Below are positions 4,877 through 42,122 of a DNA stretch of 64,000 nucleotides, piece by piece. The stretch lies in contig CBDCQT010000010.1 in assembly GCA_965220745.1 (NCBI GenBank), positions 480,001 through 544,000 on the forward strand, read 5' to 3'. The position numbers and the translations under genes were made by a program. The stretch's first letter is position 1. Each line of letters begins with the position of its first letter. This DNA comes from Alphaproteobacteria bacterium (lineage in GTDB: Bacteria > Pseudomonadota > Alphaproteobacteria > UBA828). The notes beneath the pieces were generated by a model that was not told where the DNA came from, made no database searches, and saw only the letters and a list, made by a program, of their open reading frames with translations.

Positions 4877-5269
4877 CTAGAACTTGCGGTACGCCCCGTT
4901 GAGGTCGGACATCGGGTGGCGGGGCGACATCTGAAACTTCACCAATAGCTCGCGGGCGAGCATGTCGCGATCCTGCTGGTTGTCGGGCAGCTCCAGATCC
5001 TCGGGCACCGTGACCCAGCCGTTGATATTGCGGTCGAACACCGCCGGCCGGCCTTCCTCGTAGCCCATGTGGACGTCTTCCAGCCAGTTCAGGTCGGTCC
5101 AGCCCATGGTCTCGATGTAGCGCTTGAGGAAGGGCGTGAGTCGCTCGTAGTCGGGCACCAGGTTCACATCGTAGCGATAGCCGATGTGTTGGCCGATCTC
5201 CTTCTCGCGCTCGCTGTCGAGGCCGCTCTGGCTCAGGAAGTAGTCGACGTCGCCGGTCTTGTCGCTCAT
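4877..5269 (-). CDS. Hypothetical protein, last gene of the glx-like operon
   Basis: Clean 130-aa ORF with host-like codon usage, RBS GGAG, 22 bp after glxD. Confidence 0.75.
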   Translation of the reverse strand: MSDKTGDVDYFLSQSGLDSEREKEIGQHIGYRYDVNLVPDYERLTPFLKRYIETMGWTDLNWLEDVHMGYEEGRPAVFDRNINGWVTVPEDLELPDNQQDRDMLARELLVKFQMSPRHPMSDLNGAYRKF

Positions 5270-5291
5270 GGCGCTTCTCCGGTCTGGGCTT

Positions 5292-6659
5292 CTAGTAGCG
5301 GTTCATGTCGGGGCGGCCGACGGTGTGCTGAGAGCCCGCGAGCGGCACCTGGGCCATGGCCGAGGCCTCCATGGTGAGCGCGGCGAGATCCTCCGGCTCC
5401 AGGCTGTGCACGTCGGTCTTGCCGCAGGCGCGCGCCATCATCTGGCATTCCAGCGTCAGCGTGTGCAGGAAGTTGTAGACCCGCTCCGCCGCCTCGTCAG
5501 GGTCGAGCCGCTTGCGCAGCTCCGGGTCCTGGGTGGCGACGCCCACGGGGCAGCGCCCGGTGTGGCAGTGGTAGCAATAGCCGGCCTCGACCCCGATCTC
5601 GGCCTCGAAGTCGGCCTCCGGGATGTCCTTGTTGCAGTTGAGCGCCATCATCACCGAATGGCCGATGGCGACCGCATCGGCGCCCAGGGCGAGCGCCTTG
5701 GCGATGTCGCCGCCGTTGCGCACGCCGCCGGCGTAGACGAGGCTGATGCTGCCGGAGGCGCCGAGGTCGTCCAACGCCTTGCGCGCCTGGCGGATCGCCG
5801 CGATACCGGGCACGCCGGTCTCCTCGGTCGCGAGATGCGGGCCGGCGCCGGTGGAGCCCTCCATGCCGTCGATATAGATGCTGTCCGGGCCGGTCTTGAT
5901 CGCCATGCGCACGTCGTCATAGACGCGGGCGGCGCCCAGCTTGAGCTGGATCGGGATCTCGGCGTTGGTGGCCTCGCGAATCTCGTTGATCTTGAGCGCG
6001 AGGTCGTCAGGCCCCAGCCAGTCGGGATGGCGCGCCGGCGAGCGCTGGTCGATGCCGGCCGGCAGCGAGCGCATCTCCGCCACCTGGTCGGTGACCTTCT
6101 GGCCCATCAGGTGGCCGCCGAGCCCCACCTTGCAGCCCTGGCCGATGAAGAACTCGCAGGCATCCGCGAGCCGCAGGTGGTGCGGGTTGAAGCCGTAGCG
6201 GGACTGGATGCACTGGTAGAGCCACTTCTCGGAGTAGCGGCGCTCGTCGGGGATCATGCCGCCTTCGCCGGAGCACGTGGCGGTGCCGGCCATGGTGGCG
6301 CCGCGCGCGAGCGCGGTTTTGGCCTCGTAGGAGAGCGCGCCGAAGCTCATGCCGGTGACGTAGACCGGGATGTCGAGTACCAGCGGCCGCTTGGCCTTGG
6401 GCCCGATCACCGTCGTGGTCGTGCACTTCTCGCGGTAGCCCTCGATGACGAAGCGCGTGAGCGTGCCCGGCAGGAAGGTGAGATCGTCGAAGGTCGGGAT
6501 ATTCTTGAAGAGCGAGAAGCCGCGCATCCGGTAGCGGCCGAGCTCCGCCTTGATGTGGATGTCGTCGATCACCTCCGGCGAGAAGATGCGGCTCCGCCCC
6601 AGGATGTGACGGTTGCGGCTGGGCCGGTTGGCGACGGCTTCGCGTCTGTCGCTGGCCAT
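5292..6659 (-). CDS. glxD: FMN-binding glutamate synthase family protein (GlxD/MgsC-like)
   Basis: GMSFGALS, SGEGG, IGQGCKVGLGG, DGMEGSTGA, CYHCHTGRCPVGVATQ (3Fe-4S). Start set at MASDRR. Confidence 0.85.
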   Translation of the reverse strand: MASDRREAVANRPSRNRHILGRSRIFSPEVIDDIHIKAELGRYRMRGFSLFKNIPTFDDLTFLPGTLTRFVIEGYREKCTTTTVIGPKAKRPLVLDIPVYVTGMSFGALSYEAKTALARGATMAGTATCSGEGGMIPDERRYSEKWLYQCIQSRYGFNPHHLRLADACEFFIGQGCKVGLGGHLMGQKVTDQVAEMRSLPAGIDQRSPARHPDWLGPDDLALKINEIREATNAEIPIQLKLGAARVYDDVRMAIKTGPDSIYIDGMEGSTGAGPHLATEETGVPGIAAIRQARKALDDLGASGSISLVYAGGVRNGGDIAKALALGADAVAIGHSVMMALNCNKDIPEADFEAEIGVEAGYCYHCHTGRCPVGVATQDPELRKRLDPDEAAERVYNFLHTLTLECQMMARACGKTDVHSLEPEDLAALTMEASAMAQVPLAGSQHTVGRPDMNRY

Positions 6660-6697
6660 GACGGGCTCCTTGCAGGGTAGCGAGAGGCTGCGCTCGG

Positions 6698-7549
6698 CTA
6701 GAGCGCGATCTTCTTCTCGGTCGGCTCGAGGTTGTCGTAGTTCCAAAGCTGCTTGCCGGCGACGATCTTGGTCAGGTTCGCGACGCTGTTGGGCGCCTCC
6801 AGGCCGTAGGTCGCGAGCTTGTTTTCGAGCCAGCGCGCTTCGACGTCGGTCATCTCGCCGGGGACGGCATCGACACCGAGGGAGGCGATGGTGCCGCCGA
6901 CGAAGATCGTGCCGTCATAAAGCGAATCGCCGAGGTTGATACCGGCGTCACCGAGAATGACGATGCGCCCGCGCTGCATCATGAAGCCGGTGAACGCGCC
7001 GGCGCGGCCGCCGATGATGATGGTGCCGCCCTTCATGTCGATGCCGGTGCGCGAGCCCACGTCGCCCTTGCAGACGAGATCGCCGCCCCTGAGCGCTGCG
7101 CCGAAGGTGGAGCCTGCGTTCTTCTCGATCACCACGACGCCCGCCATCATGTTCTCGGCGCAGGACCAGCCGACGCGGCCCTTGATGTGAATGTTCGGGC
7201 CATCGACCAGGCCGCAGCCGAAGTAACCGAGGCTGCCCTCGAAATCGAGCTTGAGGCGATTGAGGATGCCGACGCCGAGGGAGTGCTTGGCGAGCGGATT
7301 CTGGACCACGATGTGGCCGTAGCCCTCGCCCATCAGCTCACGGATGCGGAGGTTGACCTCGGGCCCGTCCATCTCGGCTGCGTCGATCGTCGCCTTCTTG
7401 GTGAAATCGACATCGAAGCCCTCGGGATAGGTGTAGTTGTCGCCCTCCTCGGGATAGAAGAAGACCTGCTGGGTGCGGCCGGCGAGCTGCTCCGCGTGCA
7501 GCCCCATGTCATGGGATTTGTGCCGGTCGTCGGGGCTCAGTTCTGCCAT
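6698..7549 (-). CDS. glxC: GXGXG-repeat glutamate synthase alpha C-terminal-like protein (GlxC/MgsB-like)
   Basis: GSLGYFGCG, AENMMAG, GIDMKGG, GFMMQRG beta-helix repeats; ends KQLWNY. Confidence 0.85.
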   Translation of the reverse strand: MAELSPDDRHKSHDMGLHAEQLAGRTQQVFFYPEEGDNYTYPEGFDVDFTKKATIDAAEMDGPEVNLRIRELMGEGYGHIVVQNPLAKHSLGVGILNRLKLDFEGSLGYFGCGLVDGPNIHIKGRVGWSCAENMMAGVVVIEKNAGSTFGAALRGGDLVCKGDVGSRTGIDMKGGTIIIGGRAGAFTGFMMQRGRIVILGDAGINLGDSLYDGTIFVGGTIASLGVDAVPGEMTDVEARWLENKLATYGLEAPNSVANLTKIVAGKQLWNYDNLEPTEKKIAL

Positions 7550-8493
7550 ACCTTGACCTCCCCTTCGTAGGGATCCCAGGTGTCGATCTCGTCCGGCATG
7601 ATGCCGCGGATCGCGACCTCCTCGGAGGCGAGGCCGACGAAATCGTCGCTCTCGTAGAGCACCATGGGCTTGGCGGCCATGGTGTCCTTGGCCATGCCCA
7701 GGCTGTCCGCCGTCGCCACCAGATAGGTGAAGACGCCGTCGAGCTCGCCCACCGAGCGGTCCATCGCCTCCTTGAGCGTGTCGCCCCGTTCGATGCGGTC
7801 CGCCAGATAGACGGCGATCAGCTCGGAATCGCAGTTGGACATGAAGCGATGGCCCCGGTGCTCCAGCGCCCGGCGGAACTTCCAGTAGTTGGTGAGCTGG
7901 CCGTTGTGGACCACCGAGATGTCGTTGAAGGGATAGGCCCAGTAGGGGTGGGCCGAGCGGATATCGACGTCCGATTCCGTGGCCATCCGGGTGTGGCCGA
8001 TGGCGTGGGTGCCCTGGAAGCCGGCGAGGTCGTACTGCTCGCTCACGATGCCGGCGTCGCCGAGATCCTTGATCAGCTCCAGCGCGCGGCCGAGGGATAG
8101 AATCTCCGCGCCTTCGACATCCTCGATGTAGTCGGCGAAGCGCTTGAGCCGCTGCTGGCCGCCATCGTCATCGGCGGGGAAGCGCAGGCGATAGCGGTAC
8201 GCGTACTCGGTCGCCTGTTCCTCGCTGACGATCTCCACATCCATGCTGCGGATGCGCTTGTCCACCTCGGCCTTGCGGTCCTTGATCTGCTGGTGGATTT
8301 CGAAGCCTTTGCCGATGTCCTCCTGCTCCGCCACCTTGAAGCGCATCACGTGGTCGCTCTCGACCGGGATGCCGTAGATGGCGAAGCCGGTGGAATCCGG
8401 CCCGCGGTGTTTGAGCGCCTGGAGCATCGTGGTCATCTCCGCCCCGATGTCGCCGCTCGATCCGCGATGGATCAGTCCTGCTATCCCGCACAT
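7537..8493 (-). CDS. glxB: Class II (Ntn) glutamine amidotransferase (GlxB/MgsA-like)
   Basis: N-terminal MCGIAG, HRGPDSTG, GHTRMATES, AHP, VHNGQLTN, DSE. Confidence 0.85.
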   Translation of the reverse strand: MCGIAGLIHRGSSGDIGAEMTTMLQALKHRGPDSTGFAIYGIPVESDHVMRFKVAEQEDIGKGFEIHQQIKDRKAEVDKRIRSMDVEIVSEEQATEYAYRYRLRFPADDDGGQQRLKRFADYIEDVEGAEILSLGRALELIKDLGDAGIVSEQYDLAGFQGTHAIGHTRMATESDVDIRSAHPYWAYPFNDISVVHNGQLTNYWKFRRALEHRGHRFMSNCDSELIAVYLADRIERGDTLKEAMDRSVGELDGVFTYLVATADSLGMAKDTMAAKPMVLYESDDFVGLASEEVAIRGIMPDEIDTWDPYEGEVKVWQN

Positions 8494-8526
8494 GGGCGCC
8501 TCGTCTTATCCGTTGGTTAGGGCAGG

Positions 8527-9996
8527 CTACGGCAGGCAGTCGAGATAGGTCTCGACGTCCCACTCGGTGACCGTGGACATGAAGCGCTCCCACTCGTCGC
8601 GCTTGTAGTGCATGAAGACCTTGAGCATCTCGTCCGGCATCGCGGCCTTGATCACCTCGTCGCGCTCCAGCGCATCGAGCGCCTCGCCGAGCGACATCGG
8701 CAGCTTCTTCACCAGCTTGCCGGCCTCCATGGCCTGGTAAATGTTGCGCTCCTCCGGCTCGCCGGGGTCCAGATCGCGCGCGATGCCGTCGTCGAAGGCC
8801 TTGATGATGGCGCCGGCCATCAGGTACGGGTTGACCATCGAATCGACCGAGCGGTACTCGAAGCGACCCGGTGCCGAAACCCGCAGGCCGCAGGTCCGGT
8901 TCTGATAGCCCCAGTCGGCGAAGACCGGCGCCCAGAAGCCGGTGTCCCAGAGACGCCGATACGAGTTCACCGTCGAAGAGCCGAGCGCGGTGAGCGCCGC
9001 AAGGTGCTCCATCACGCCGCCGATGCACTTGAGGCCGACCGGGCCGGGCTTGTGGTCGTCGATCGACGGGTCCGGCATGAACAGGTTCTCGCCGCCCTTC
9101 CAGTAGCTGAAGGTGTCTTCCAGGCCGGGCATCGGGTCCTGGTGCAGCGCGTTGACCCGTTGCTCGCCGCCGGTCCAGAGCGAGACGTTGTGATGGCAGC
9201 CGCTCGCCGAGACCCCCATGAAGGGCTTCGACATGAAGCAGGCGATGACGCCGTGCTCGCGGGCGACCTGGGCGCAGATCTGGCGGTAGGTGGTGAGCCG
9301 GTCGGCGGTACGGAGCGCATCGTCGAAGGTGAAGTTGAGCTCAAGCTGGCCGGGGGCGTCCTCGTGGTCGCCCTGGATCATGTCGAGTCCCATGGCCTGG
9401 CCGTACTCGATCACCTGCATGAAGATCGGCCGGAGCTCCTCGAACTGGTCGATGTGATAGCAGTTGGGCTTGGTGACACCGCCGTCGGTCCCGCCGTCCG
9501 CGCCGCGCTTGAGCCACATCATCTCGGGCTCGGTGCCGTGGCGCATTTGCATCCCGTGCTTGGCCTGGAACTCGTCGTGGATGATCCGCAGGTTGCCGCG
9601 GCAGTCCGAGGTCAGGTGGCCGCCGGGGTTCTCGCGCTCTTCCCGGTTGCGGAAGCAGGTGCAGAAGACGCGGGCAACGCGCTTGTCCCAGGGCAGCTGG
9701 ACGAAGGTCTCGGGGTCGGGGATGCCGACCAATTCAGACGCTTCCGGCCCGTAGCCGATGTAGTTGGAGTGGCGGTCGGTGAAGAGATTCGCGGTCGAGC
9801 CGTAGACCAGCTGGAAGCCGCGTTCGGCGATCTGCTCCCAGTGATCGGCGGGCATGCCCTTGCCGACGATCCGGCCCGTGACGGAGACGAACTGGTAGTA
9901 GATGTAGGTGACACCGAGCTCCTCGATCTTGGCGCGTACCTGCCGCACCAGTTCGTCGCGGCCTTCCCTGTTCACATGGGCTTCAAGATCGGTCAT
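8527..9996 (-). CDS. Glutamine synthetase-like gamma-glutamyl-amine ligase (GlnT/GmaS-like)
   Basis: GTEPE, DHEDAPGQLE, FMSKPF..SASGCHHN, NSYRRL, NRTCGLR, EYRSVD, NPYL. Start at MTDLEAH with RBS GGAG. Confidence 0.85.
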   Translation of the reverse strand: MTDLEAHVNREGRDELVRQVRAKIEELGVTYIYYQFVSVTGRIVGKGMPADHWEQIAERGFQLVYGSTANLFTDRHSNYIGYGPEASELVGIPDPETFVQLPWDKRVARVFCTCFRNREERENPGGHLTSDCRGNLRIIHDEFQAKHGMQMRHGTEPEMMWLKRGADGGTDGGVTKPNCYHIDQFEELRPIFMQVIEYGQAMGLDMIQGDHEDAPGQLELNFTFDDALRTADRLTTYRQICAQVAREHGVIACFMSKPFMGVSASGCHHNVSLWTGGEQRVNALHQDPMPGLEDTFSYWKGGENLFMPDPSIDDHKPGPVGLKCIGGVMEHLAALTALGSSTVNSYRRLWDTGFWAPVFADWGYQNRTCGLRVSAPGRFEYRSVDSMVNPYLMAGAIIKAFDDGIARDLDPGEPEERNIYQAMEAGKLVKKLPMSLGEALDALERDEVIKAAMPDEMLKVFMHYKRDEWERFMSTVTEWDVETYLDCLP

Positions 9997-10030
9997 CTCC
10001 GCATCCTCCCAGACGATCCGGCTGGTCCCG

Positions 10031-11374
10031 TCAGCTCCACGGGAAGGGGCTGTTCGAGACCGGGTGAAGGCGGCCCTCCGCAAAGCGCGAGAAGCGGAAA
10101 GGCTCGAGCAGGGCGCTTTCGCGGCCCATCAGCTCGTCGGCGACCAGCTTGCCGACGGCCATCATCTTGTAACCGTGGTTCGAATCGGCGATCACGTAGC
10201 AGTTCTCGCGGAAGCGATCGAACACGGGAAAATTGTCGGCGGCGAACGCGCCGATGCCGCCGGAGGGCTCATCGAGCCAGTGCCCGATCTGGCCCTTGTA
10301 GCGGCTCTGGCAGTGGGCGAGCGCCGAGCACCACATCTCCCTGAATGCCTCGTCGACCACGAATTCCGGCGACTCCGGTCCGTAGGGGTCGATCGCCACC
10401 TCGGGCACCGCAGTCTTCACCTTGTAAGGCGTGGCGCCGCCCTGGACGCCGCCGAAGTTGAAGTCCGGCTTGTAGTAGATGCCCCACATCTCGTCGGTGA
10501 TCAGCTTGCCGTCCACGTCGGAGTAGAGCGGCTCGTCGGAATCGACGTGAATGACCGGCGGCATGGAGCCGTCGTCCGCCATGCCGTAGGAGGGCTCGAC
10601 CGCGATCGTTCCTTCCTGCAGGCACCAGAAGCGCCACATGTCCACATCGCGGTGCAGGGTGCCTTCCAGGTCCTTGACGTCGATCCGTTCCGGCAGGTCG
10701 AGCATCTCCCAGATTCGCGGCACCCAGGGCCCGACCGCGACGATGACCTGGTCGACGTCGATGGAGCCCTGGTCGGTCTCGACCGAGGTCACCGCCTTGG
10801 AGTTGGCGCCGAAGCCGAAGCCCTTGACCTCGACCCCGGTAAGGATGCGCACGCCGGCGCCCCTCGCCTTGTCCGCGAGCCCCAGCATCGAGGCCTTGTT
10901 GTGGGCGTAGCCGCCCCTCTTCTCGTGCAGGACGGAGGTGATGCCGGGCGCCTGCCAGTCGTCGAACAGACCCCGCATGTAGCGTGTACAGTCGGCCTCG
11001 CCCTCGATGAACTCGGATTCGTAGCCGATCGCCCGCTGCTGCGCGGCGATCTCGGCAACGTCCGCATGCATGCTCTCGGGGCTGATCTGCATGTAGCCAA
11101 CGGAATGGTAGTGGTAGGCCTCGGGATCGCTCTCCCACTCCTCCACGCAGGCCGCCATCAGCTCGCGCATGGCCGGCTGATAGTAGTTGTTGCGGACGAC
11201 GCCGCAGGCGATGCCGGAGGCTCCGGCGGCGATGTCGGTCTTGTCCACCACCAAGATGTCTGCGGCGGCGCCGTTGCCCTTTGCCTTGAGCGAGGAGGCG
11301 AGGTGATAGGCGGTACTGAGGCCGTGGATTCCGGCCCCGATGATCAGATACTTGACGTGCCGCGGAAGCGTCAT
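10031..11374 (-). CDS. FAD-dependent oxidoreductase (sarcosine oxidase beta / DAO family)
   Basis: IIGAGIHGLSTAYHL dinucleotide fold, GASGIACGVVRNNY, HGYKM. Confidence 0.85.
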   Translation of the reverse strand: MTLPRHVKYLIIGAGIHGLSTAYHLASSLKAKGNGAAADILVVDKTDIAAGASGIACGVVRNNYYQPAMRELMAACVEEWESDPEAYHYHSVGYMQISPESMHADVAEIAAQQRAIGYESEFIEGEADCTRYMRGLFDDWQAPGITSVLHEKRGGYAHNKASMLGLADKARGAGVRILTGVEVKGFGFGANSKAVTSVETDQGSIDVDQVIVAVGPWVPRIWEMLDLPERIDVKDLEGTLHRDVDMWRFWCLQEGTIAVEPSYGMADDGSMPPVIHVDSDEPLYSDVDGKLITDEMWGIYYKPDFNFGGVQGGATPYKVKTAVPEVAIDPYGPESPEFVVDEAFREMWCSALAHCQSRYKGQIGHWLDEPSGGIGAFAADNFPVFDRFRENCYVIADSNHGYKMMAVGKLVADELMGRESALLEPFRFSRFAEGRLHPVSNSPFPWS

Positions 11375-39489: not shown

Positions 39490-40281
39490 TTAGTCGTCGC
39501 CTGTCCATCGTTCTTCTCGCTCTTGATCGCGCGCCTCCGCAGTGCGCCCTTCCGCATCGTTGGTGTATTCGGTGGCCATGACTCCCTGAACCGGAGCGAT
39601 CATGACTTTGTTTAAGTTGAGAAATTGGACGAGGGTATCAATCTCTTCCGCTGTGGTCAGGCGAAAGGAGCCCTCTAGGGCCGTCCCATCAAACGCCGCA
39701 CGGAATGGCGTTCCCTGTTGCGGAGGTGGTGGCGGCGCCAAATCGGCACCCGACGACATGCTCGGTTGCATTGTTTGGTCCGCCTCTTTGCCAAGTTCAG
39801 CAGGACCTTGATCGTAGAAAGCACTCTCGCGTTCGGCAAGCTCCATTGTTTCACGATAGGCGAGCAAAGCGATGCCTGCCGCCCCACTATTGAAGTTATT
39901 TCGCAAAAGATAGTTCCGCAGAAGTCCCTCGTTGTCCCGGCCGCCGGGGAAACGCTCGGTTAGGGTCGCGAAGAGTTCCGGGTCAGATGCAGCATCCTGG
40001 ATGGCGCTCACACGCTCCTGGGGAGATTCAGGGTGGAGGCACTTCATCCCGCGCTCACTGATCTTGAGGTCGCTTCCCTGGCGCTCCAAAAGACCGTATT
40101 TCTTCAAAGCTGATACGGCCGTCGCAGACTTGCCATGCAGACCGGAATAGCCCAGCCCCGTCGCTATGTCCTCTCGCGGCGCGGGGTGCGCCTGGACCGC
40201 GTTCCACAGCCTCTGCAGGCGCTCCAACGCCTCCGGTAGCCCGAGGGCAGGGTAGTTCGGGGATCGCGCTCGCTTGCTCAT
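39490..40281 (-). CDS. Hypothetical protein, probable winged-helix N-domain (DUF5343-like, tentative)
   Basis: RSPNYP..L.EAL...IATGLGY....SALKKYGLLE. Codon usage less GC3-biased than neighbours; RBS GGAG. Confidence 0.7.
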   Translation of the reverse strand: MSKRARSPNYPALGLPEALERLQRLWNAVQAHPAPREDIATGLGYSGLHGKSATAVSALKKYGLLERQGSDLKISERGMKCLHPESPQERVSAIQDAASDPELFATLTERFPGGRDNEGLLRNYLLRNNFNSGAAGIALLAYRETMELAERESAFYDQGPAELGKEADQTMQPSMSSGADLAPPPPPQQGTPFRAAFDGTALEGSFRLTTAEEIDTLVQFLNLNKVMIAPVQGVMATEYTNDAEGRTAEARDQEREERWTGDD

Positions 40282-40359
40282 CGTTATTCTCCACTCGTAC
40301 GTGGTGGGGAGAATAACACGCTCCCTCGTGTACGTAAAACTTTTTTCACGACTTCCAGG

Positions 40360-40388
40360 TTGACGAGAGACTCTGGCAATAGCAGAAT
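40360..40388 (+). promoter_or_regulatory. Putative sigma70 promoter
   Basis: TTGACG-N17-CAGAAT, upstream of the structured RNA / tRNA-like element. Confidence 0.55.
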
Positions 40389-40415
40389 GAGCCCCAGAGC
40401 GAGTCGGAGGCGCAT

Positions 40416-40505
40416 ATGAACAGAAGAGAGTGGAGCCCCCACCGGTATCGCCGAGCGCTGGCGGGGGCGAGGACAAACAGCAGGGGCCGCTGCCCAGCTC
40501 CCTAA
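40416..40505 (+). CDS. Putative 29-aa leader peptide
   Basis: GGAGG at 40406-40410, ATG at 40416, MNRREWSPHRYRRALAGARTNSRGRCPAP, TAA stop. Confidence 0.3.
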   Translation: MNRREWSPHRYRRALAGARTNSRGRCPAP

Positions 40506-40541
40506 GACGCAAGCAGCGGCCCCGAATCGGCCCGTCTTAGG
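40483..40541 (+). ncRNA. Predicted H-type pseudoknot abutting the tRNA-like element
   Basis: 40483-40493 pairs with 40513-40523 (11 bp, perfect); 40501-40509 pairs with 40533-40541 (9 bp, perfect). Confidence 0.5.
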
Positions 40542-40630
40542 AGGCGTAGCAGAGCGGTCGAATGCAGCGGTCCTTAAAAACCGCCGGACCTCCCTTGGTC
40601 TCGTGGGCTCGAAGCCCACCGCCTCCGCCA
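40540..40630 (+). tRNA. Non-canonical tRNA: serine-type body, 8-nt anticodon loop CCTTAAAA
   Basis: Acceptor GGAGGCG/CGCCTCC-G-CCA, D arm GCA..TGC, anticodon stem GCGGT/ACCGC, long variable arm GGACC/GGTCT, T arm GTGGG-CTCGAAG-CCCAC. Confidence 0.75.
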
Positions 40631-40847
40631 GACCCCACTAAGGCCGATGTGTCCATAGCACGTCGGCCAACTTTTTAAAATCAATCTTTTGCCCAGCGTT
40701 TCGAAGCGGCCTTCCGCACGATTTCCCGCCGCCGCTCGGGCGAGAGGGGCGGACTTCGAACTGACGCAGTACCGTGCATTGACGCGCCCCGGCCTTCGCG
40801 CGAGCATAACAGATTCCGCGAGTGTGGCTCTCAGGGAGGAACGGGAC

Positions 40848-42122
40848 ATGGCGCGCACCGTCTTCACCAACGTCAGCATCTTCGACGGCACCGGCAAGAG
40901 GCCCTTCCGGGGCGAGGTGTCGATCCAGGGCAACCGTATCGAGAAGGTCGCCAGGAACGGCCAGAAGCTGTCGCGGCGGGGCGCTGCGGTGGTGGACGGC
41001 GACGGCGCCACGCTGATGCCGGGGCTCGTCAACGCCCACTGCCACATGAGCTACACCGGGCCGGAAGCGATGTCCGAGATCCCGCCCGAGGAGCACACGC
41101 TCATCACCATGCACAACGCCAAGACGATCATCGATCACGGCGTGACCGCGGCTGTGGGCGCGGGCGCGGCGAAGACACGCCTCGATATCGTGATCCGGAA
41201 CGAGATCGACGCCGGCCGCATCCCCGGTCCGCGCTACCGCGCCTGCTCGCCGGAGATCACGGTCACCGGCGGCCTCGGCGACCAGCGCATGCTGCACTAC
41301 TACAAGAACGACCTCTCGCTCTTCGCCGATGGGCCGGAGGAGATCCGCCAGGCCTGCCGCATGCTGGTCCGCGAAGGCGTGGACATCATCAAGCTCATGC
41401 CGTCGGGCGATCACCTGATCCCCGGTGCCTGCGATGCCACCCAGAGCGCGATGGACGAGGACGAGATCGCCGCCGGCGCGCGGGTCGCGCACCAGCGGGG
41501 CCGCCGCCTCGCCGCGCACGCGCGCAATCCGGAATCGATCCGGCTCTGTATCAAGTACGGGATCGAGCTGATCTACCACGCGACCTACGCGGACGAGGAA
41601 TCTCTCGACCTGCTGGAGGAGCACAAGGACAGGCACTGGGTGGTGCCGGCGATCGGCTTCACCCACGCGACTGCCTACGAGGCCGGCGAGTTCGGCATCT
41701 CGCCGGCGGAAGCCGAGTCATGGGGCTTCGTCCGCGAGCTCGAGATCGGAGCCGAGACCCTGAAGAAGATGCACGCGCGCGCAATCAAGGTGCTGCCCTT
41801 CGGCGACTACGGCTTCCCCTGGACGCCGCACGGCCAGATGGCGCGGGACTTCGAGCACTTCACCAACTACCTCGGCATGAAGCCCTACGAGATCATGCGG
41901 GCCGCGACCCACTACGGCGCCCAGGCCTTCGCTGCGCCGGACGAGCTGGGCCGCGTCAAGCCGGGCTGCCTCGCCGACCTGCTGCTGATCGACGGCAATC
42001 CGCTCGCCGATCTCACGCTCTTCCAGGACGAGGCGAACATCCTGATGGTCATGAAGGACGGCGCCTATCACAAAGCGCCGCAGGCGCGGCAGAGGGTCGT
42101 GCAGCAGGCCGCAGCCGAGTAG
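40848..42122 (+). CDS. Metal-dependent amidohydrolase
   Basis: MPGLVNAHCH, IIKLM, AAHA, YHAT, ADLLLIDGNPL. Confidence 0.88.
   Translation: MARTVFTNVSIFDGTGKRPFRGEVSIQGNRIEKVARNGQKLSRRGAAVVDGDGATLMPGLVNAHCHMSYTGPEAMSEIPPEEHTLITMHNAKTIIDHGVTAAVGAGAAKTRLDIVIRNEIDAGRIPGPRYRACSPEITVTGGLGDQRMLHYYKNDLSLFADGPEEIRQACRMLVREGVDIIKLMPSGDHLIPGACDATQSAMDEDEIAAGARVAHQRGRRLAAHARNPESIRLCIKYGIELIYHATYADEESLDLLEEHKDRHWVVPAIGFTHATAYEAGEFGISPAEAESWGFVRELEIGAETLKKMHARAIKVLPFGDYGFPWTPHGQMARDFEHFTNYLGMKPYEIMRAATHYGAQAFAAPDELGRVKPGCLADLLLIDGNPLADLTLFQDEANILMVMKDGAYHKAPQARQRVVQQAAAE

Follow-up and report, generated by a model that had tools for sequence, protein, structure and literature searches.

A serine-type tRNA gene with an eight-nucleotide anticodon loop, possibly a former ochre suppressor, in a small alphaproteobacterial module

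Serine-inserting nonsense suppressors are exemplified by the supD/serU amber suppressor of Escherichia coli and by psu1 of phage T4. Natural stop-reading tRNAs in bacteria whose genetic code is the standard one are rare and poorly understood; the available text of PMC13092985 places suppressor tRNAs in approximately 0.3% of standard-code bacterial genomes. This work concerns a gene with a serine-type tRNA fold located at positions 40540-40630 (plus strand) of a 64,000-nucleotide stretch of DNA, hereafter the window, from an alphaproteobacterium of the UBA828 lineage (GCA_965220745.1, contig CBDCQT010000010.1, positions 480,001 to 544,000; the genome, 4.8 Mb and 67% GC, is referred to as G000). 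The anticodon loop of this gene has eight nucleotides, while its relatives are serine-type tRNAs with a seven-nucleotide loop and the ochre anticodon UUA, accompanied by a structured leader RNA and usually by a divergently encoded protein of 263 residues (P263). We consider, with moderate confidence, that the window tRNA is a former suppressor which no longer decodes normally and lies inside a module still under selection.

Like the classical suppressors, the family has a serine scaffold, expected to be chargeable by seryl-tRNA synthetase (SerRS) whatever the anticodon, its anticodon UUA is one base away from the serine anticodon UGA, and its host genomes still use all three stop codons. Unlike them, it is natural and conserved and has its own promoter, leader and partner proteins instead of being a laboratory mutant, and the window copy is without a stop-reading anticodon in a 7-nt loop. 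Pseudo-tRNA regulatory RNAs, such as tRNA-Other of Bacillus cereus, are similar in having a tRNA shape inside a longer transcript, with loops free to vary. They differ in that no regulatory target was found here and the close relatives of the window tRNA look fully competent.

The allo-tRNAs, as described in the available text of PMC5389517, also have serine-type bodies with leucine or stop anticodons; they show a patchy distribution among environmental bacteria and a link to mobile DNA, with both intact and degenerate copies. However, their acceptor/T branch is 8/4 or 9/3 (12 bp), whereas the window family has a 7/5 branch in which T8 faces C and cannot extend the acceptor, and that text mentions neither a leader RNA nor a P263-type partner. 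Yeast mitochondrial tRNA-Thr(UAG) has, according to the available part of PMC7609411, an anticodon loop of 8 nt in a cloverleaf that is normal in other respects. This tRNA and the classical +1 frameshift suppressors, which also have 8-nt loops, have a canonical T loop and a demonstrated function, while the window copy has lost U54, its T loop can close and any function is putative. No description of the tRNA family, the leader or P263 appears in the literature as available to us, and the supplementary tRNA lists of PMC13092985 and PMC5389517 may include such genes. The module around the 8-nt gene appears to be undescribed and to be of more interest than the gene itself.

The first-pass annotation, made from the sequence alone, had described a complete 91-nt cloverleaf with an 8-nt anticodon loop, the T loop CUCGAAG, G73 and an encoded CCA, and all of these are present exactly as claimed:

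40540-40630, plus strand: serine-type class II tRNA-like gene of 91 nt, with an 8-nt anticodon loop at 40572-40579 and the T loop CUCGAAG at 40608-40614.

The anticodon loop reads CCUUAAAA. The stems comprise an acceptor of 7 bp (GGAGGCG/CGCCUCC), a D stem of 3 bp, an anticodon stem of 5 bp (GCGGU/ACCGC) and a T stem of 5 bp. The proposed serine-type scaffold was borne out by the alignment with the four tRNA-Ser genes of the host, in which the long variable arm, G73, the 3-bp D stem, the D-arm type and the G1-G2-A3 acceptor start agree. No serine anticodon (NGA or GCU) can be read from CCUUAAAA in any register. The gene is also unlike tRNA-Sec, which has an 8/5 branch, a 6-bp D stem and the anticodon UCA, as its own branch is 7/5 and its D stem has 3 bp. 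Since the host genome already contains serine tRNAs with the anticodons GCU, CGA, GGA and UGA and leucine tRNAs with UAA, CAA, UAG, CAG and GAG, the window gene is an extra.

The predicted minimum free energy of the RNA is -42.1 kcal/mol (RNAfold, z = -3.19), and 2 out of 200 shuffled sequences fold as well. ARAGORN, which also found a permuted tmRNA in the G000 genome, reported one gene at exactly 40540-40630, labelled tRNA-??? and with no anticodon assigned. An Infernal search with the Rfam tRNA model RF00005 (gathering score 29 bits), a check which the first-pass annotation had suggested, placed the window tRNA in this family with 43.1 bits when limited to 40530-40640; the relatives described below score 59.8-61.8 bits and the host tRNA-Ser 61.0 bits. 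The model gave no match to it in the whole-window run at the gathering threshold or in a 291-nt run at E<=10; given the score of the short-span search, these misses can be attributed to filter losses. In the Infernal alignment the extra base is inserted behind C32, so that U33, the anticodon UAA and A37 follow (C32-c-U33-UAA-A37). A canonical elongator has a 7-nt loop with U33 directly before the anticodon, and here the loop has 8 nt. The canonical open T loop (U54-U55-C56-R57-A58) is absent as well, with C at position 54 and G at position 60. These two bases enable a closed T arm of 7 bp with a 3-nt loop, which is 4.5 kcal/mol more stable than the open form.

The gene had been interpreted as tRNA-Ser(UGA) with one added C, and its loop had accordingly been compared with CT-TGA-AA. 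Both points had to be corrected. The sole paralogue within the G000 genome, the normal tRNA-Ser(UGA), is only 74% identical to the window tRNA. This level of identity, combined with a different acceptor, D arm and anticodon stem, rules out a recent duplicate of the host gene. In contrast, the body of the window tRNA is 87-90% identical to serine-type tRNAs with the 7-nt loop CUUUAAA (anticodon UUA, ochre), so the relatives point to CT-TTA-AA as the reference loop.

Nine other family sequences, which represent approximately six distinct lineages, have the loop CUUUAAA and the T loop UUCGAAU. The CUUUAAA loop is carried by G008, L158, L159/L160/L162 (identical metagenome loci), L055 with the matching L161, L106, L110, L116 and L163. 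Among the matches listed, the members from genomes belong to two Parvibaculum metagenome-assembled genomes (MAGs), an unclassified alphaproteobacterial MAG and a Hyphomicrobium MAG; six metagenome contigs contribute further members, a seventh match being an ordinary tRNA-Ser. The members found by the pattern scan share an identical acceptor, D arm, anticodon stem, anticodon loop (CUUUAAA) and T loop (UUCGAAU). At least 117 stretches were listed in the scan of genome contigs, so further family members are possible; 84 of the stretches are ordinary tRNA-Ser(UGA) genes of other taxa, similar in the D arm and anticodon stem but not in the acceptor, and 25 are chance matches. No family member turned up in 400 further genomes sampled evenly from the class, where the 13 two-mismatch matches are 12 ordinary tRNA-Ser and one tRNA-Tyr.

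The locus is present in 3 out of 21 genomes of the genus (G000 and the sister species G008 and G001) and in none of 28 other genomes of the order. Its orthologues in the genus are both canonical-looking serine-type tRNAs: G008 has CUUUAAA (UUA, ochre), and G001 has CUCUAAA (CUA, amber) but has lost G73 and the encoded CCA. Two compensatory stem changes point to selection on the relatives: pair 31-39 has changed from U-A to C-G in G001 and a T-stem pair from G-C to A-U in L116. Within the serine-type subfamily, the loop CUUUAAA shows no variation between Parvibaculum, Hyphomicrobium and the genus of the window, while P263 over the same range falls to 43-51% identity. The window tRNA belongs to this family by body homology, leader, promoter side and neighbours, and departs from it in lacking the anticodon UUA in a 7-nt CUUUAAA loop (alignment A2).

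We regard the family as a rare, conserved and patchily distributed putative serine-type ochre-suppressor tRNA, of which the window gene is a derived member. We take the intact UUA form to be a real serine-inserting ochre suppressor, with charging by SerRS expected from the scaffold. If charged in this way, it would insert serine at UAA and, by wobble, at UAG.

Two further tRNAs deserve mention. The sister species G020 has a serine-type tRNA (locus L032, that is G020:C7; 1507-1597, minus strand) with the loop CUAGGCA, the anticodon AGG and C at position 37. The Logan contig runs X1 and X2 represent one sample, which is possibly the source of the window. Record 2 of X1 is a contig of another organism from that sample with a related serine-type tRNA, whose 5' half has 3 mismatches to 40539-40579. 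It resumes one base earlier than the window sequence, as a 7-nt loop would; its variable arm differs, and its T arm is normal. Leads on expression were discarded. A contig of run X6 at depth 4012 represents a different tRNA (5 mismatches in 40 nt), and 0.04 of the words were matched in X20, the sole run on record as RNA.

The closest relative with a 7-nt loop is L162. The window tRNA differs from it at 6 out of 91 columns, all of them unpaired positions: G9A, two changes in the anticodon loop, C>T in the variable loop, U54C and U60G. The anticodon-loop changes can be written either as insertion of C 5' of U33 with U35A or, equivalently, as U33C with insertion of A. Since L162 agrees with the majority of the other seven sequences of alignment A2 at all six columns, all six changes are assigned to the G000 branch. 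They affect the conserved positions 33 or 35, 54, 60 and 9, including those that almost never vary in working elongator tRNAs (U33 or 35, U54).

Divergence between G000 and L162 amounts to 10.9% in the P263 gene, 23.9% in the promoter spacer, 8.1% in the leader, 6.6% in the tRNA and 13.1% in the 3' flank, and the neutral divergence of the two lineages, taken from the 3' flank, the promoter spacer and the P263 dS of 0.287, can be placed at approximately 0.13-0.29 per site. By an arithmetic estimate, 6 changes in 41 unpaired nucleotides are roughly what neutral change along a single branch would give; on the L162 branch, none of the 91 nt has changed. Of the five substitutions, three replace T by C or G, as would be expected if foreign DNA of lower GC content drifted in this genome of 67% GC; the GC content of the cassette stretch is 0.56-0.61 compared to 0.67-0.70 around it. 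The earlier argument that intact stems speak against simple decay is half right: the stems are unchanged, but the unpaired positions, U33 or 35 and U54 among them, have changed at about the neutral rate.

The 8-nt loop is shared by one more sequence, a contig from run X5, which belongs to another study and is labelled as sponge metagenome. Over 40300-40855 this contig has 33 substitutions and 2 indels relative to the window. Both indels (at 40414 and 40680) lie outside the tRNA, and the X5 relative therefore likewise has an 8-nt loop. Its tRNA has three substitutions, 40576 A>C, 40595 T>C in the variable loop and 40614 G>T in the T loop (CUCGAAU), the first of which turns the anticodon loop into CCUUCAAA, also of 8 nt. 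The 8-nt loop, A9 and C54 are thus common to the window and X5 lineages. The search for relatives proposed in the first-pass annotation had a mixed outcome. Normal 7-nt loops, which the annotation had named as a sign of assembly error or recent drift, were found in relatives (CUUUAAA, not the anticipated CTTGAAA), which makes the 8-nt loop a derived state of one small lineage, while the extra base itself was reproduced in contigs; the 8-nt loop is kept in the X5 relative, but compensatory stem changes occur only in relatives with a 7-nt loop.

Judging from these changes, the decoding function of the window copy is most likely lost or crippled. Ordinary pairing with UAA would no longer be possible. 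The transcript and its helices would nevertheless persist because the rest of the module is still selected: it has retained a promoter, its leader hardly varies and purifying selection acts on P263. The RNA would probably still be transcribed. Decay of the module in the genus, where the tiny gene downstream of the tRNA is cut or frameshifted and the G001 tRNA has lost G73 and CCA, also counts towards a former suppressor. The 3106 open reading frames (ORFs) contain 6854 TTG codons (5.6 per 1000 codons) and 1702 of them end with TGA, so an active serine tRNA with the anticodon UAA, or a UCA reader, would be costly here given the use of TTG and of TGA as the main stop codon. According to the available text of PMC5389517, induction of a serine-charged allo-tRNA with the anticodon UAA in E. 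coli led to growth arrest and ultimately to death. This toxicity, the TTG and TGA usage, the loss of loop bases at about the neutral rate and the decay of the module in the genus make us favour a former suppressor.

Several observations weigh against this reading. Enlarged loops can decode, as shown by the 8-nt loop of yeast mitochondrial tRNA-Thr(UAG) in the available part of PMC7609411. None of the 50 stem nucleotides has changed, compared to 3.3-7.2 changes expected neutrally (Poisson P of approximately 0.04 to 0.0008, calculated post hoc and subject to the reservation that GC-rich stems may mutate less), and some function of the folded RNA is likely kept, judging from the unchanged stems. 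The rest of the module is alive: G000 and X5 differ at 1 out of 124 leader positions and at 3 out of 91 tRNA positions, compared to approximately 7-8 per 110 in the flanks, and the ratio of nonsynonymous to synonymous substitution rates (dN/dS) of P263 relative to L162 is 0.24 (dS 0.287), indicating purifying selection. The derived state is no fresh lesion either, as the 8-nt loop, A9 and C54 are shared with X5, which is about 6% diverged in the flanks. Finally, the sole difference between the G000 and X5 anticodon loops falls, in the Infernal register, on the middle anticodon base (UAA in G000, the opal-reading UCA in X5). The genus thus shows three stop readers (UUA, CUA and UCA) in addition to UAA, which could reflect selected switching instead of drift. 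The pattern of stop anticodons could also be due to chance: of the 9 anticodons one base away from UUA, 2 are stop readers, and the genus has both.

Comparison of the loci indicates that the tRNA is part of a small, apparently horizontally moved module, which also comprises P263, the divergent promoter, a pseudoknotted leader with its tiny ORF, a terminator and a tiny basic protein encoded convergently. In the window, these other elements are:

39490-40281, minus strand: P263, a protein of 263 aa with a winged-helix N-terminal domain, divergent from the tRNA unit and situated in the low-GC stretch (0.56-0.61).
40360-40388, plus strand: sigma-70-like promoter of the leader-tRNA unit (TTGACG, 17 nt, CAGAAT), 1 site compared to 0.0 expected from shuffles.
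40416-40505, plus strand: tiny leader ORF of 29 codons, starting with M-N-R-R-E and ending with TAA, preceded by the Shine-Dalgarno sequence GGAGG at 40406-40410.
40435-40531, plus strand: structured leader with hairpin 1, a pseudoknot helix and hairpin 2, predicted from covariation and RNAalifold.
40642-40678 (or, more narrowly, 40642-40668), plus strand: intrinsic terminator made up of an 11-bp stem and a T run, which the convergent small gene also uses.
40681-40779, minus strand: remnant of the gene of the convergent tiny basic protein, of which only approximately the last 23 codons (...LSPERRREIVRKAASKRWAKD) are homologous.

Judged by eye, the promoter boxes are the same in L162 and comparable upstream of the other relatives compared. 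The Shine-Dalgarno sequence, the ATG and the AGAAGAG start of the leader ORF recur in all relatives; in L163 the first arginine codon is CGG instead of AGA, a synonymous change which suggests that the ORF is translated. Hairpin 1 of the leader pairs 40435-40445 with 40458-40468, the pseudoknot helix joins 40450-40454 to 40527-40531, and hairpin 2 pairs 40483-40493 with 40513-40523 and holds the stop codon of the ORF in its loop. This structure was evaluated on 14 leaders: the window (40405-40539), L162, L010, L158, L055, L110, L116, L163, L185, L188, L189, L193, L194 and L195. Over its 27 pairs, 90.1% of the alignment cells are paired compared to 75.7% in shuffles (0 out of 500 reach the observed value) and 32-48% in slid controls. 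Both sides have changed in 16 of the 27 pairs, and RNAalifold agrees with the model. No Rfam family matched the leader, whose overlapping tiny ORF starts with M-x-R-R in this set. We also considered a "gate" codon of the leader ORF matching the anticodon of the tRNA and found it unsupported: the stop is TAA in the clade of the genus and in L116 and TGA in Parvibaculum and L163, it remains TAA in G001 (CUA) and in the window, and the GTA/GTT at codon 5 of two modules with a "UAC" tRNA is also found in a UUA module.

Downstream of the tRNA, the terminator hairpin is conserved in G008 and G001. L158, L116, L055 and L163 have an intact gene for the tiny basic protein (74-79 aa), whereas in the window and G008 approximately the last 23 codons are left, and G001 has a frameshift in it. 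The window is homologous to G008 or L158 only over about 40406-40748 (the homology ends at approximately 40746-40748), meaning that the cassette resides in different contexts in different genomes. The tiny protein has no family in Pfam, NCBIfam or PADLOC, and belongs to a very large unnamed group in which 7942 of 8000 candidates scored at E<=0.001. An intact paralogue, 49% identical to the L158 form and without a tRNA beside it, is encoded elsewhere in the G000 genome (G000:C13:631862-632083, minus strand). In L159/L160/L162 the tiny protein gene, located about 100-330 nt downstream of the tRNA on the opposite strand, has an in-frame TAG where the relatives have lysine. Either this gene is a pseudogene or, as UAG is read by ochre suppressors too, it depends on the suppressor next to it.

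P263 has no family in Pfam, NCBIfam, PHROG or PADLOC, and its 474 homologues in the database are all unnamed or "hypothetical". For P263 and the tiny protein, NCBIfam and Pfam gave only sub-threshold matches (CARF-associated helix-turn-helix, DUF3618, L4). The AF2 model of P263 has a mean pLDDT of 78.6. Closest to it in fold (VIA) come BrxA, MarR-type winged helices and the recognition domain of FokI, all with Z<=7.3, which is within the range of common arrangements, and a Foldseek search with the model returned nothing at E<=0.001. An assignment of function from structure was therefore abandoned, as matches to winged-helix DNA-binding domains alone are uninformative.

According to tblastn, a P263 homologue lies divergently beside the tRNA at 6 loci (L162, L055, L106, L110, L116 and L163) out of 10, 8 of the 10 being family loci. 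None was found in L158, L164 (the G008:C7 locus), L144 and L032, although the contig of L144 starts within the leader and does not cover the upstream side. Origin from a phage or plasmid was rejected: blastn of the cassette against plasmid and phage collections gave no match, an exact-pattern scan of viral contigs gave 0 matches, and P263 has no PHROG.

In G008, an IS1595-family transposase gene (10325-11296, minus strand; PF12762, 3.6e-39) abuts the truncated end of the cassette. The cassette there ends a low-GC island of about 5 kb (5000-10200, GC 0.45-0.61) with mostly unknown ORFs, one of them with a CBS domain. In G020, the AGG serine-type tRNA has an IS1595-family transposase at a distance of approximately 150 nt, whose identity to the G008 transposase is 49.5%. 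The transposase has no PADLOC family. Five diverged IS1595 copies are present in G000, all away from the cassette, including one in the window at 858-1829 on the minus strand (G000:C10:480858-481829); no convincing tRNA-like cargo was found near any of the five. As far as the Parvibaculum, Hyphomicrobium and metagenome loci reach, no transposase was found beside the cassette. The cassette in G008 and the AGG tRNA in G020 are in this respect similar to passenger-carrying IS1595-family transposons, the window cassette is not, and no title in the literature as available to us deals with a tRNA passenger of such elements. The idea that the window cassette is IS1595 cargo was dropped, since no transposase adjoins it and an inverted-repeat search around the G008 element defined no ends.

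Homologues of P263 were also found in two other orders (4 out of 73 and 10 out of 401 genomes searched). Where a tRNA-like gene was found in these distant modules, the divergent layout is the same. Six of them (L185, L188, L189, L193, L194 and L195) could be aligned and have the same pseudoknotted leader with a different tRNA-like body. In L185, L188 and L193 the anticodon reads "UAC" and we read the D arm as Glu-like; L195 has "UUC", and L194 has an 8-nt loop with "CUAC". In L189 there is a match to the tmRNA model at the acceptor/T end only (28.3 bits, below the gathering score of 47), and nothing recognisable as a tRNA-like body was found in L187, L190, L191 and L192. Several of the distant bodies have imperfect anticodon stems, as judged by eye. 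On this comparison, the module has its conserved core in the protein and the leader, whereas its tRNA-shaped part has been swapped. In L185, L188, L193 and L194, a shared GC hairpin followed by GGATCA...GGGAYTGG is located 3' of the tRNA-like gene and may be a second RNA element (judged by eye).

These distant modules lead to an alternative which we hold to be possible, if doubtful: the tRNA-shaped RNAs of the module would be non-decoding partners in every lineage (a ligand or target of P263, a regulator, a decoy or an antitoxin-like RNA), with the anticodon loop as a changeable specificity element and the 8-nt loop as a working variant. The layout and the leader are retained while the tRNA-like bodies differ, some of the bodies have imperfect anticodon stems or, as in L189, only a tmRNA-like acceptor/T match, the stems are conserved and the loops are free in the G000 lineage, and odd serine-type tRNAs of G008 and G020 lie beside IS1595 transposases. 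On the other hand, CUUUAAA has remained invariant across the serine-type subfamily while P263 diverged to 43-51% identity, and the bodies of the relatives are fully canonical (about 60 bits) and mostly have an encoded CCA, as in real decoders. In addition, no binding or regulatory target was found, and the fold matches of P263 are uninformative.

It is unlikely, in our opinion, that the anticodon loop is a selected, switchable specificity element of an RNA-protein module in which the 8-nt forms, far from being relics, function as deliberately weak decoders or as recognition elements. The gene of a single genus would then read UAA (with UUA), UAG (with CUA), UGA with an enlarged loop (UCA) or the leucine codons UUA/UUG (with UAA).

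We find it quite improbable that the RNA is charged with serine and reads the leucine codons UUA and UUG as triplets (U33, anticodon UAA, the extra C being tolerated), acting as a low-level Leu-to-Ser mistranslator, as the first-pass annotation had suggested. SerRS does not read the anticodon of tRNA, and the serine identity features of the scaffold are intact. The best alignment by Infernal gives exactly the UAA register. A tRNA with an 8-nt loop decodes triplets in yeast mitochondria, and an allo-tRNA with the anticodon UAA is charged with serine and inserts it at UUA in E. coli (available texts of PMC7609411 and PMC5389517, respectively). However, the same E. coli experiment ended in the arrest and death described above, TTG is common in G000 and a normal tRNA-Leu(UAA) is present. 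Folding and function on the ribosome should suffer from C54 and from a T loop that can close, and the different middle base in X5 means that UAA is not conserved.

A reader of quadruplets (UUAA or UUAN) causing +1 frameshifts, or a weak reader of UAA in an alternative loop register, is very improbable. The 8-nt anticodon loop, the hallmark of classical +1 frameshift suppressor tRNAs, is present in the window tRNA and holds the self-complementary UUAA. Against this, no gene needing a +1 shift at UUAA turned up, although no search was aimed at such genes, and the loop is not conserved in the X5 relative. Residual reading of UAA requires a register that places C at position 33, and the T-loop lesions count against it as well. 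An active Leu-to-Ser or four-base reader is possible but unsupported here. It is scarcely credible that this is an ordinary suppressor tRNA whose extra nucleotide arose as an error of assembly or sequencing, since apart from prior expectation nothing speaks for it and, even though X1 and X2 may be the data behind the window's own assembly, their two contigs reproduce 40300-40853 with 0 differences and the independent X5 contig has C54 and no indel in the tRNA.

Overall, one serine-type ochre suppressor appears to be conserved across distant alphaproteobacteria, always with the same leader and usually with P263. The window gene, which we regard as a former suppressor, offers a view of such a tRNA over time, with its helices retained and its decoding loops altered. 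If the module controls or uses stop-codon readthrough, it would represent a new mobile way to tune translation termination; if its tRNA-shaped RNAs are not decoders, they would constitute a new class of tRNA mimic. Either way, annotation pipelines should not take the gene as evidence of an altered genetic code.

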